The notes: a model not told the origin generated them from the sequence alone. Positions 41,092 through 46,428 are shown, numbered from the stretch's first letter. The stretch is 64,000 nt of DNA from Trypanosoma brucei (GCA_000002445.1 CP000071.1:1696001-1760000), one strand, 5' to 3'. Program-made: numbers and translations.

Positions 41092-41556
41092 AGGAGGCGC
41101 ATAACGCAATTGTGTGTCGCGGGAAAAAAAAAGGCCCTTCATATATACGTTTCTTGTTGTTTTCGGTCGTCTTTCTGCTTTCAGTTTATCTGAAAGAGGA
41201 TCTGAAATATCCACGGGAGAGTGGCAATGTGCGCGAGAACTGCGCATATCATCGTTATAGCTGCCGCTGGTTATGTTTGTCATCGGTGCATTTTGTTTTT
41301 TTTTTTCTCTCCTCCCTTGGCTCCCTTTCCTGAGAGCATAGCATTTTGATAATGGTACAACAACGGAGGTGGAAGCAGTTTCGTTCTGCTATCGTCGTCA
41401 GATGCGTGCTCTAAATAAGTCACTTTTTTAAAAAAAAAACACGAGTCTCTTATGAGTCGTTCTTGCTTCAGGCTTTCCTCTCCTTGAACTTTCTTCTCCG
41501 GTTTCTTCTCCTGCTTTTTCTGCATTCATAGACGGATCTCCACACCGAGGTATCAA

Positions 41557-44400
41557 ATGGCCAATCGCTGCGGAAAGGTTGTGCTGGTGATAATTCCTTG
41601 GGCATCAGCGTTTGCACTTTATCCCCTACCGTATGCGGTGCATTTGGCCTCGCCGGCCGGGCAGTTATGGTCATGTTCGCCTGCGTTCTCCATATCAGCA
41701 TTGCTGCCTCCCACCGACGGTTCTCCGGGGCTGCCGCACGGCAAACCGCCTTCGACCATTTCATTTATATCATCGCCCGCCGCCCCCCTCCCCCCCCCCC
41801 CACACACACGCACACACACAGACAGAAATTATGGATTCGGCAGAGTCCTGACGTGGGCCTTGGTTCGCGCCACCGTCGCTACAGTTCCCACTGCTCGCTA
41901 GCACTAATGATAGGCGCCGCCCGTTTCCGTTTGGGTTCGGGAGCTCCTTCTCCGATGGCATCACTATGGTTGGATCCCGTTTCATTATTCGCGCGTTCTA
42001 GCGAATTTGAAGCTTGCACAACGCTGCCTTCGGCCCCATCCGAGAGGGCGGGCAAAGCGGGGCACACATCCGCGTGCGTTCACCCAACCCCCTCCACCGC
42101 AGGCTGGTTTTCCTTGATCCGCTCGCCTTGTCGGTCTCGGTGCTTTCTCCCCCTGCCGCCTCTTCCATTCCATGCCGAAAACGAGAAACCGCGCGGGGGT
42201 TGGGTCACATTGTCATTTGGTGTCTCCCCAAGGGTTTCCGACGCCCCAACAAATACCCACCGGTGAGGTCCCCGCGGTTCCCCCTTCCTTTTCCGTCCCA
42301 TCCCACCCCTTCGCGTTTCCCGTTATATCCGGCCCCGCCCCACACATCTCTTCGGCCCGACGTGCTCGCGTAACGTCGATATCGGGCGGTGTATGGGTGA
42401 ATGGCTTCAAAGCATTCTTTTAGAGCTCTTCCTGGGCCCGAGTCATTTGACTTATGGTCGCCCTTTGCCGAGGGAAGGTCAAGTTAGACTAGGGACATAC
42501 CGCCGGATCGCGGACCCTCTCTGCCCTGGTCGCGGGTATTGGCAGAGGCGGCCAACCCGTTGGCCAATCATTGCTTGATATTGCTTCCCTGTTTCTGCCC
42601 CTTCGTTATGGCAACAGCACAATGTGTATTCAACAGAGCGGCGGCTGAGGGGGAGGAGGGTTGTTCTACGGGATCACCCGCGTCCCTGGGCGGCGCCACT
42701 GCGGGTCGAAAAAGAGCAATTTCCTCCGACCGAGCGCGCTGCGTCCTCTTTGGCGCAGACCGAACGCCACCGAGAGGATTGGTTCTCTGCGTGTTGAACT
42801 CCAATCCAACATTGAAACCGATGTATTCCCCATGGCGTTTCTGCCCCGTGACGTCCGAAAAATCGTCCACGGTGAAGGCCGCTTTCGGCTATGGGAAAAG
42901 GTTTCCCTTGCCTGATATTTTGTCCCTCATTCCTTTCCATACCGCACTGACCAAACACAAGTCGTCCCGAAACGATCGCATTTCTTTTGAAAAGTGTAAC
43001 GCCTTCCCTCGTAGTAGGCGAGTGATTTCATCCCCTCTCCGGGTTCGAAGGGTCTTAAGGCTCCTCGAGGGCCGCAAAGACCCCGCGAAATACAACCGCC
43101 GAAGATTTTTCTGGGCAGCTCGGGCACTTTTTTTTTCGTAGCGGCGCGTTCCACCCCTTCGCCATTCCCATACGTACTGCCTCCGCCATGTGGTTCCAAA
43201 CCAAGCCTGTGTCTTACCATTCTCTCGATCACGCCCCCGTACGCTGTTCGCTTCGACGCACCGCCCGGGATGGGGAACCGAACGCCCGGAGCTCCTTTTT
43301 TGTGCGAAAGGTCAATGCTTTAAGGCTTCCGCATCACCGCACCGCGGTCCGCAGGGGCAAGCCAGCCCCTCCCTCGCCGATATTTACGAAACCGCTGATT
43401 TCATACAAAAGCACCAACACAAGCGATCGACGACCCGGGGAAGTTCCGACAACGGCGTTACGCCATCACCGTCGCGCCGTCGAAGCGCGCCGTCGGCGGC
43501 ACCACAGGAAGAAACCGCCACCGAGGGGTTCGTTTCAGTCGAGCGACGGTGATGGCATAACACCGTTGTCGGATATTTCTTCCCCAAAGCCATTCAAAGG
43601 CATGTGGCACAGAGGCCCAAAACCAAAACATTTCCCCCCTACAAACACAACATATTGGCATTTAAAAAATTCCCCAGACCTCCCCGCGCATGTGGATTCG
43701 TAGAAGGTTGCCGCGCAGCGAGGGGCAGGGCGCTGCAGCCCTCTTGAGGGCCACCGGTGCTTCAAAAAAGTCCGCAGGGAAGAAAAAGGGTCGCGAGGCG
43801 TTCGGAAGACGCTTTGCGGACAACACGGCATTGGCACCGTGCGGCACCTCCTTCCAAGCGAACCTCTCCGCTCACCCGCCAGAGCTCAGGCGCTCGGTCC
43901 CCACAGCACCTTCAACGCTGCGGACTGCCCGGCGTGTGTCGCGCTCGCTTCCCAAGCGCGCAAAATCGCGCAAACACGTCGAGCCCTCCAACCATCGAAA
44001 TTCGATGATGTGACATGTATCCTTCTCCATTTCTTCCCAAGACCCCGTTCCAGCCCACGTCTCCAATGAGACTCTGACCATATGGGGCAGAAGGGCGGGC
44101 CGGGGCGGAAATGCAAGAGGAGGGGGCTTGAGGTCGCTTCCATCAAAAAAGAGGGGAGAGTCATCGCGTGGCACCCGCGCTCCGTGATGTGCTTTGTTGT
44201 GGCGGTTGGATCGTACTTGGAACTACGTTCTTTGCTCCTGGAAGGGTGCATTGGGGCGGCGATCGCATGGCGGAGTCAGCCCGTTCCACTTTGTAGACGT
44301 GGTGCAGCCGTAATACGGGGTGCATTTCTGCACCCGAGGGAGACCGGTTTATATGAGGAGGTGCGGACGGGAATGTGGTCGTGAAGTAGGTAGCCTGCAG
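41557..44400. other. GC-rich ORF-less island (~2.9 kb) inside the gene cluster; candidate degenerate element, pseudogene remnant or non-coding RNA locus
   Basis: Its composition shifts abruptly to G+C-rich, by eye about 60% against T-rich neighbours. All six frames are broken, with the longest ORF 222 aa and only Pro/Ala/Arg-rich low-complexity translations. It contains a C-run plus (CA)n tract at about 41780-41825. The 3' flank, 44.4-46.4 kb, is AT-richer and also ORF-free. Confidence 0.5.
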
Positions 44401-46428
44401 CCGCGCCCCATCCTTTTTGCTCTCTTTTTTTCTTTAAGGGGAAAAAGAGGACCAATGAAATGGGGGTTGCGGTTGTTGAGAAGAGAAGGGGAGGGGTTCT
44501 GTGCCGTACTATTTCAAATAGCAACCCCCAACACCTTTCAGTTATTTTTCTCAACCCGTGACAGACACCAGCAGATGCCACACTAAATTTAGTGATTCAA
44601 CGCTCTCGACTTTCGTGCCTCTGCGGCCTCAATGAACTTATTAAGTTAAACTTACTGGTGATGACTTTCAACCGTTAACGCAACGAGTCTTCTGACTACG
44701 CAGTGGCGTTGTTTTTCAAATAAATCCCCGCGTGCTGTAGCTGAATGTGTTCAAGGGCCGCCGTTTGCCTCGGTGAGGCTCTTTTTTGATAAGGTTTGCA
44801 CATGCAATGTTTTACGTGCCGTTGGAAAAAGTTGCTGACCCAGCGAGTATATATTTACGTAATATTCCGCTGTGTGTCTTGGCTTTGGAAACTCCGGTGA
44901 TTCAAACAAACGTGAGTACATGCGTCGATTGTGTTGGGTGTGTGTATGCATTTGGTACTTAGCCTCTGCGTTTCTTCAGTATGGACAAATGAAAACTTAC
45001 CTCCGCGGCCTGCCACACGGTTGCGGGGAAAGGCGAATATTCGCGATCGATGTCGCTGACGTGCACAGTTTTTGCACTGGTGTATAGTGAATTCAGTGCG
45101 CCGTGTTTCTGATTCAAAATTTGTAGGGGACGAACCGCATCGCTACCACTGGATTTGAAATGTCATGGGTGAAGTTTTAGAGATAGAAGTGTTAAACTTT
45201 TTTCTCCATTGGGAGGCACGTAGATGTGTGTCGGGAAGATCGGGGGAAGGGGAGTACGTGAGGTTAATGTCAGTGATCTGGTGGGTGGTCTTGGTGATGC
45301 GGAAGCTGCAAGGATCCCACACGAGATATGCACATACCTGACGAACTCACAAGAAAGCGAATGAAAAGAATTGGTCTTGAGCCTCCGCGGTGGTCTCGCG
45401 GGTGCATCACCAATGAGGAGGAAGCAATGCATCCACGGAAGGGATTTACTTGAGTAATCTGGAAAAAACCCCGATGTGCATTAAAAACTTATCGGTCTTA
45501 TGAAAATGTAGGGTTTGTATCTGTGGTTTCTCCCGGTATTTCCACTTAAATGCTACGGAAGCTACGGAGCAGCAGCGTAGTTACATCTTAATAGCTGACA
45601 TAAGAGCTAAACCCCAAACACGGTGTGATCCCAGGGTGGAACGTTACTACTCTTTAAGGTATGAACGAAAAGAAAATGACATTTCACACAGCAGCTCTTC
45701 CCGCCGAGTTGAAACGCCATTGCCGTTATCTTCTTAAATTTATTTTTTTGTTTTTTCTTCGGCATACACGATGTGGAATATCAGGAAAAAAAAAGTGTGT
45801 ATTTCTTTTATTTTTTTTGTTCGGAATGCGTGGTGTAGGTGTGGGTACTAAGGGACGTTGTACGGTACGACTGTGGATGTTGACGAACGGTCTTTACGCA
45901 TATGTTGTCATCGTTTGAATATTTCCTGACTCTTTGTTTGGTGTTCCTCCCTTTCCATAGCTATGAATAAGGTGTGCTGAAGAGAAGGTATTTCTCTTTA
46001 CGGGGCAATCGGCGTACTGTAACAACCGCAGTCCCATAATCAGGGAGGCTTCGTTTTACATGGGAGTGTTAGAGCAGTAAAAAAGAATATATCGTATGGA
46101 GTCCCTCTCTACTATCGATTTTTTTTCTTTGACTTCTATAACTTTGATTTTTTTTTCGTCACCGAGAACTGCGGTGGAAGGTGGGAAATATGAAGTGAAA
46201 GAGGCAGCTCGTTGCGGGGTGCGTTTCTAGTTTTTGTTTTATTTTCTACGCAAATAACACTCCGACTGTTTGTTCATTTATCTTTTAGTGAGCTGTTGCA
46301 TGCAAAACAGGCTCCGGTAACGAAATGTGATGGTACCCGGTGACGTGCTTAAAAAAAAAAGATAATTTTTACGTTGTACCTGCCATTTCTTCCTAGCCTC
46401 TTCACTGTGTTTTCCAGTGCACTTAGAA

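Follow-up and report, generated by a model that had tools for sequence, protein, structure and literature searches.

Trypanosomes control almost no genes at transcription initiation, so their chromosomes have their main landmarks at the few places where RNA polymerase II (Pol II) stops and starts again. At one class of such places, the head-to-tail sites, a peak of BDF3, H4K10ac, or H2A.Z is reported (Siegel 2009; Schulz 2016) to lie inside an array of genes that are all on the same strand. Here we consider a 5.3 kb gap between genes (41092–46428) within a 64 kb stretch of chromosome 8 of Trypanosoma brucei TREU927 (the window; all positions are counted from its first nucleotide). The original prediction for this DNA had marked the gap as a gene desert with a GC-rich island inside it, and offered four explanations without choosing among them. 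We put a probability of roughly 0.85 on one of the four, namely that the gap is a head-to-tail boundary between two Pol II polycistronic transcription units. Published experiments on two open reading frames (ORFs) inside the island, and the gene order in related species, both point to this option.

Head-to-tail sites have been defined as BDF3-bound, non-divergent regions within a same-strand gene array (Schulz et al., 2016, PMC4721952). Our locus does not differ in kind from other T. brucei boundaries of this type, as it is itself a catalogued site: it has same-strand genes on both sides, a BDF3-based call near 43705, and a silent gap before transcription restarts. What it adds is a 3 kb silent zone that is GC-rich and C-skewed, which the papers cited here do not discuss. 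The locus also resembles the internal termination sites that were studied at Tb927.5.3990–Tb927.5.4020 (Reynolds 2014/2016; Kieft et al., 2020), where the last genes of a transcription unit are kept silent in a manner that depends on base J, H3.V, and PNUTS-PP1, and the ORFs at our locus change together with Tb927.5.4020 in other data sets. At that model locus, however, a VSG is among the silenced genes and the unit runs up to a convergent strand switch, whereas here the silenced sequences are apparently chance ORFs and a same-strand restart comes directly after the stop. A possible third likeness, in composition, is to the GT-rich dispersed promoters of T. brucei, in which 10-mers made of G and T runs at the 5' edge of a start region favor the coding strand (Wedel et al., 2017). 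Our locus has coding-strand G runs at 44.0–45.4 kb and their mirror image on the minus strand at 43.1–44.2 kb. In contrast to those promoters, the plus-strand G+T excess here is modest and the minus-strand side has no genes.

The identity of the locus is clear. Proteins encoded in the window match TREU927 Tb927.8.5910, Tb927.8.5920, Tb927.8.5930, and Tb927.8.5940 exactly, and Tb927.8.5950 (MKK4) is placed by a published RNA interference (RNAi) primer (PMC6283605) that matches at 49483. Every credible gene of the window, like every long ORF with codon periodicity, reads along the plus strand. The gap is bordered by Tb927.8.5910 (40177–41091, plus strand, 304 amino acids), which closes the series of credible genes in the upstream transcription unit, and by Tb927.8.5940 (46429–47847, plus strand, 472 amino acids), which is the first gene of the downstream unit. 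The claim that these 5.3 kb contain no credible coding sequence agrees with the annotation of T. equiperdum OVI, whose contig is 98.8–99.9% identical to the window across 38028–57855 and has zero genes between the 304-residue and 472-residue genes. It also agrees with the absence of codon periodicity (described below). The claim has to be corrected in one respect, as the TREU927 annotation does include two ORFs in the island, both on the plus strand and both labeled "hypothetical protein": Tb927.8.5920 (41667–42266, 199 amino acids) and Tb927.8.5930 (43188–43703, 171 amino acids).

It is these two ORFs that tie the gap to published data on transcription. The S6 Table of Schulz et al. (2016, PMC4721952) lists the distance to the 3' head-to-tail site ("3' HT SSR") as 2038 bp from the start of Tb927.8.5920 and 517 bp from the start of Tb927.8.5930, and both distances converge on the same position, 43705 (41667 + 2038 = 43188 + 517). 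We therefore place the edge of the published site at 43705, and the region that leads from it to the first downstream gene at 43705–46428 on the plus strand. Another group gave Tb927.8.5930 the location feature "stop/start" (Ouna et al., 2012, PMC3332058, Table 3). In the same study, Tb927.8.5930 was nearly silent in wild-type bloodstream forms (0.3 reads per kilobase per million (rpkm), as compared to a median of 30.6) and rose by 9.4-fold after RNAi of CTR9. Polyadenylated sense RNA over the island is nearly absent in the wild type; another of the original options, a long non-coding RNA locus, may or may not apply.

Both ORFs are derepressed when termination fails. First, Tb927.8.5920 and Tb927.8.5930 are among the sense transcripts that changed more than 4-fold in base J-null and in J/H3.V-null cells (0.34 to 3.68 and 0.66 to 4.37; PMC4721952, S6 Table). 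This derepression in J-null cells is only indirect support for the predicted enrichment of base J, H3.V, or H4.V on the termination side of the site. Second, both ORFs were raised at least 3-fold by RNAi of TbPNUTS (log2 fold changes of 1.66 and 2.01, adjusted P of 6.8e-4 and 4.4e-6), while the bordering genes Tb927.8.5910 and Tb927.8.5940 are absent from the list of raised mRNAs (Kieft et al., 2020, PMC7055916, S4 Table). TbPNUTS is a subunit of a termination complex, and the genes that were raised map to the flanks of transcription units (PMC7055916). Separately, Tb927.8.5920 is among the 20 most raised transcripts (log2 change of 3.19) in an acoziborole-resistant, procyclic-like line of T. 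brucei. The table for this line also includes the procyclins and Tb927.5.4020, which is 3 kb from a transcription stop area (PMC3332058, Table 3). This suggests that the resistant line has a relaxed silencing at sites where transcription stops.

The island (41450–44450) shows no sign of coding. Across 41532–44384 there is no 3-base periodicity (chi-squared of 1.4, p = 0.97; 1.3 and 2.7 for the two halves), while genes in the window score from 40 to 115. Among dinucleotide-preserving shuffles, 9% reach the lowest stop count of any frame (12) and 32% have an open stretch as long as the longest one here (244 codons). So, the short overlapping ORFs, which had been taken as a hallmark of decayed coding sequence, are what base composition would give by chance. 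The translations of the annotated ORFs are of low complexity and rich in Arg, Pro, Ser, and His. Neither the six frames of 41400–44650 (at E ≤ 1) nor the three longest ORFs had any match in Pfam. Searching 1.84 billion representative proteins with Tb927.8.5930 (Tb927.8.5920 was not in that search) returned only itself and two low-complexity matches. As for structured RNAs, there was no Rfam match at the gathering score in the whole window, three sub-threshold matches to miRNA-like hairpins at E ≤ 1 on 41000–46500 (E of 0.04–0.55), and no hit from a tRNA scan. We conclude that Tb927.8.5920 and Tb927.8.5930 are probably not real genes.

The alternative is that they are genuine, T. brucei-specific genes that are silenced in bloodstream forms by premature termination that depends on base J, like the genes past other internal termination sites, and that are expressed at another stage. 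In its favor, both are annotated in TREU927 and Tb927.8.5930 is also annotated in T. b. gambiense, their polyadenylated sense RNA can be seen in termination mutants, and Tb927.8.5920 goes up with the procyclins in the procyclic-like resistant line. Also, published models allow internal termination to permit stage-regulated expression (PMC7055916). But both halves of the island lack periodicity, the ORF lengths are within the expectation from shuffling, the translations are of low complexity without any Pfam match, and Tb927.8.5930 has no homologue among the representative proteins. Furthermore, the annotation of T. equiperdum omits both ORFs even though the DNA is about 99% identical. We consider this alternative to be unlikely.

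The base composition of the island is striking. In 300-nt windows, its GC content is 54–64% over about 41450–44450, as compared to 39–50% on either side. Of the whole 64 kb, the 15 most GC-rich windows of 600 nt all fall within 41.5–44.3 kb, and 21 of the 28 windows of this size with a GC content of at least 56% lie inside the island. As the remaining intergenic gaps of the window have GC contents of 32–54%, the original description of about 2.9 kb that are more GC-rich than any other intergenic segment was accurate. The island is also asymmetric between the strands, which that description did not mention: between about 41300 and 44150 the GC skew is below zero (the plus strand is C-rich), while nearly all other sequence in the window has positive skew. 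A run of 12 Cs (Gs on the minus strand) that is followed by (CA)n, which had been noted near 41790, is present at 41783–41824 on the plus strand, but it is not unique, as there is a second run of 12 Cs at 10818. More generally, long homopolymers of C or G occur in ordinary spacers (C12 at 10818, C10 at 39176 and 7712, G11 at 5557, and G10 at 5326), so the tract in the island is not distinctive on its own.

The asymmetry changes sign near the downstream end of the island. Within 43100–44200, the G+T content of the plus strand is 0.417–0.45, or about 3 standard deviations from the window mean of 0.523 (standard deviation 0.035), which makes this the stretch with the highest minus-strand G+T in the whole window. 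Runs of at least four Cs reach 10–13 per kb at 42–44 kb, while runs of at least four Gs reach 10 per kb at 44–45 kb. On the plus strand of 44.0–45.4 kb, these G runs are accompanied by a GC skew of +0.12 to +0.30 and a negative AT skew. Because C runs lie to the left and G runs to the right, the polarity flips at about 44.1 kb, as it does in a divergent start region. To the right of the flip, plus-strand G+T is 0.53–0.61, which is modestly above the window mean and is not extreme for the window. The change in composition from the island to the first downstream gene is therefore suggestive of a start region, but only suggestive. The density of G and C runs is more informative than the count of G-quadruplex motifs, of which the island has two to four (depending on the loop limit), which does not clearly exceed what is seen elsewhere in the window.

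The island also contains a long imperfect hairpin (43437–43585), with arms of 31 nt (43445–43475 and 43543–43573) that are 94% complementary. Folded as single-stranded DNA, it has a predicted energy of −50.6 kcal/mol (z = −7.4 relative to shuffles). The hairpin lies within the ORF Tb927.8.5930, about 130 bp upstream of the edge of the published head-to-tail site, and Rfam gives only a sub-threshold, miRNA-like match to it. Just upstream of the hairpin, the T. equiperdum assembly shows a poly-T run together with a stretch of Ns (contig L001, 5364–5407, corresponding to 43408–43428 of the window), which is the sole structural difference from TREU927 within the island. Besides this assembly gap at 43408–43428, there are few differences between the two genomes in the island. 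The stretch of Ns may reflect an assembly problem that was caused by the hairpin.

On either side of the island are AT-richer sequences. The 3' flank of Tb927.8.5910 (41092–41450, plus strand) has a poly-T/polypyrimidine tract at 41291–41312 and belongs with repeat family D1/D2. Upstream of Tb927.8.5940, there are polypyrimidine tracts at 45740–45823, 46106–46163, and 46230–46247, and an AG just before 46417.

Gene order in other species provides a separate line of evidence. The order of the giant gene, L17, eIF1A, ASF1, and Sedlin, followed by a gene with the PF01182 (Glucosamine_iso) domain, is found in T. vivax, T. theileri, and T. rangeli. Past the PF01182 gene, there is a convergent strand switch in T. 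vivax and there are GP63 genes in T. theileri and T. rangeli. The block of Tb927.8.5940, the MKK4 kinase, cullin, and XPD is on separate contigs from the upstream block in the other species; in Leishmania, the two blocks are on different contigs of about 700 kb and 870 kb. Also, the orthologue of Tb927.8.5940 is the first gene past a strand switch in T. theileri, T. cruzi, T. vivax, and Leishmania. Its neighbor on the minus strand varies: it is a GP63 gene in T. theileri; a trans-sialidase pseudogene in T. cruzi (BNR_3, 1.4e-57; TS_C, 3.3e-43); an ORF of 375 amino acids with codon periodicity in T. vivax; and a SpoU-like gene in Leishmania (locus L013), about 7.5 kb from the end of the chromosome. 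(In T. cruzi Dm28c, the trans-sialidase is split into two ORFs on the minus strand, at L005 3688–5630, and is not called as a gene in the record.)

Because the orthologous blocks lie apart and strand switches are found in the other species, the T. brucei boundary is, as judged from gene order, the junction of two synteny blocks and not an insertion within one block. The option of a lineage-specific insertion thus holds only in part: Tb927.8.5910 and Tb927.8.5930 are indeed named as T. brucei-specific, but the site is a junction. We infer that the end of one ancestral unit came to abut an ancestral divergent start region at its plus-strand half, and that the island would have replaced the minus-strand side that was lost. 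In each species, lineage-specific genes of the surface type are found at the break, and in T. brucei this gene is Tb927.8.5910. It has strong codon periodicity (chi-squared of 59) and is named "T. brucei spp.-specific protein", with no family match in Pfam or among PDB sequences. Its N- and C-termini are hydrophobic, so that it resembles a glycosylphosphatidylinositol-anchored surface protein.

The layout of the T. brucei site recurs elsewhere, although its sequence does not. In T. vivax (L003, 2500–10000), T. cruzi (L005, 5600–10000), and T. theileri (L012, 5500–7000), a block that is GC-rich relative to its surroundings is followed by a strongly AT-rich stretch (16–38% GC) ahead of the orthologue of Tb927.8.5940, with no sequence similarity. 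Comparing the island to the DNA upstream of these orthologues in T. vivax, T. cruzi, T. c. marinkellei, T. theileri, T. grayi, and Leishmania gave no similarity at the DNA level or in translation. The GC-rich block of T. cruzi is in part the trans-sialidase pseudogene. In T. theileri, the block has two small called "genes" without a Pfam match, much like Tb927.8.5920 and Tb927.8.5930.

The boundary probably works as follows. The upstream unit (the giant gene through eIF1A, ASF1, Sedlin, and Tb927.8.5910) stops shortly past Tb927.8.5910, and this stop needs base J and the PNUTS-PP1 termination complex, as is shown at the level of these genes. As the next ORF, which starts at 41667, is silent, we infer that termination begins at 41092–41450 or just downstream. 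The 3 kb island is thus an almost untranscribed zone in the wild type, and Tb927.8.5920 and Tb927.8.5930 are probably chance ORFs that report read-through, with RNA that is seen only when termination fails. By the published site call, BDF3-bound chromatin of the start type begins at about 43705, and the downstream unit restarts ahead of Tb927.8.5940. The stretch at 43100–44200 may then form one half of a bidirectional start region, the half that faces antisense, whose transcripts would die in the island just as read-through from upstream does.

Several points weigh against this account. The wild-type and mutant values in the S6 Table of PMC4721952 are identical in the J-null and double-null lists, with only the Q values differing, so those fold changes should be taken as approximate and not as specific to either mutant. 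Neither Tb927.8.5920 nor Tb927.8.5930 appears in the supplements of Reynolds 2016 and Kim 2021. The head-to-tail site call itself rests on distance columns in a supplementary table and on a one-word label in another paper. Because the plus-strand G+T excess to the right of the skew flip is modest, the promoter-like composition is no more than suggestive. Finally, the synteny comparison excludes T. congolense, the closest outgroup (the kinase is on a 2.5 kb contig and there was no protein match for ASF1).

Retroelements reportedly collect at the strand-switch regions and synteny breaks of trypanosomatids. DIRE and ingi elements have been described between gene clusters (Obado 2007). So, another possibility is that the island is a heavily degenerate retroelement (DIRE, another relative of ingi or L1Tc, SIDER, or VIPER) or a pseudogene of the RHS type, with the boundary being secondary. 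The island does share with DIRE, ingi, and SIDER at strand switches its location at a synteny break between units and a GC content above that of its surroundings, and it is skewed between the strands in the opposite sense to the genes around it. However, we found no trace of such an element by protein domains, nucleotide or translated searches, periodicity, or repeats, contrary to the original suggestion of an ingi/DIRE/RHS remnant. No remnant of a reverse transcriptase, endonuclease, or RNase H was found by Pfam in six frames at E ≤ 1. We compared the window and the syntenic loci to retroposons supplied with PMC4035085 (two TbSIDER2, LmSIDER2A, one complete L1Tco of T. congolense, and 3 kb of T. 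vivax ingi), and neither blastn nor tblastx identified any similarity; with L1Tco and the T. vivax ingi, tblastx gave nothing at E ≤ 0.01. For the Pr77 signature (77–79 nt), with which all of these elements start, blastn at a word size of 7 gave only chance-level matches of 12–38 nt. A poly(A) tail, a target-site duplication or other flanking direct repeat, and terminal repeats were all absent, leaving just poly-T tracts and short chance pairs, and the tandem and dispersed repeats in the island amounted to homopolymer or dinucleotide tracts and the one hairpin. No second copy of the island was found within the 64 kb. With no residual codon periodicity either, an origin as a retroelement seems improbable.

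The island might instead be the decayed remains of an ordinary gene, either the PF01182 gene (which is similar to 6PGL) or a surface gene such as GP63 or a trans-sialidase. The PF01182 gene is found right after Sedlin in T. vivax, T. rangeli, and T. theileri, while no trace of it was found in the T. brucei window. In T. theileri, the gene (L010, 11392–12074; called product of only 137 amino acids) matches the T. vivax and T. rangeli proteins as three pieces in different frames, so that it looks like a pseudogene. Also, a GP63 gene or a trans-sialidase pseudogene flanks the break in T. theileri, T. rangeli, and T. cruzi. But tblastn with the PF01182 proteins, GP63 (including that of T. theileri), and the small neighboring ORFs from T. 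vivax, T. rangeli, T. theileri, and T. cruzi gave no match in the window, and tblastx of the island against the compared loci was blank, so that GP63 and trans-sialidase left no trace either. As there is no periodicity and no conserved coding sequence, we find a decayed gene very hard to credit.

Long untranslated regions (UTRs) do occur in T. brucei and the polypyrimidine tracts here are of the kind that is used in RNA processing, but that the region is an ordinary, continuously transcribed UTR or spacer without boundary function, or a constitutive non-coding RNA locus, is scarcely believable when the RNA level of the ORFs in the island is roughly one hundredth of the median, rises specifically upon the loss of termination factors, and belongs to a site that two groups independently class as stop/start or head-to-tail. 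Published data at the level of genes already point to a drop past Tb927.8.5910 and a rise ahead of Tb927.8.5940. Of the two outcomes by which the original prediction would have been refuted, a conserved coding sequence and an ordinary read-through UTR, neither was seen.

Returning to the head-to-tail boundary, a further and more tentative question is why the silent zone has the composition that it does. One possibility, which we think is doubtful but worth stating, is that the island is a fossil of the minus-strand half of the ancestral bidirectional start region, kept after the two blocks fused, and that its composition specifies a stop for transcription from both directions. The dense G runs of the minus strand, the hairpin with its 31-bp arms, and a GC-rich makeup like that of dispersed promoters of the CpG-island type would then halt both read-through from the upstream unit and antisense transcription from upstream of the promoter. 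The composition of the island may also guide the deposition of base J and H3.V. A layout that T. vivax, T. cruzi, and T. theileri share without any shared sequence would fit selection on composition rather than on sequence.

Overall, boundaries of this class are well described and our locus is already in published lists of sites, so it is not a new kind of element. Still, three modest points seem to be new. First, two "genes" that have served as readouts of termination defects look like chance ORFs in non-coding DNA. Second, the silent zone has a striking composition, both GC-rich and strand-asymmetric. Third, synteny suggests that the boundary was formed when the end of an ancestral unit was joined to half of an ancestral divergent start region. 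If this is true, then the locus would be a handy natural example in which to ask what features of a sequence create a site where transcription stops and starts.

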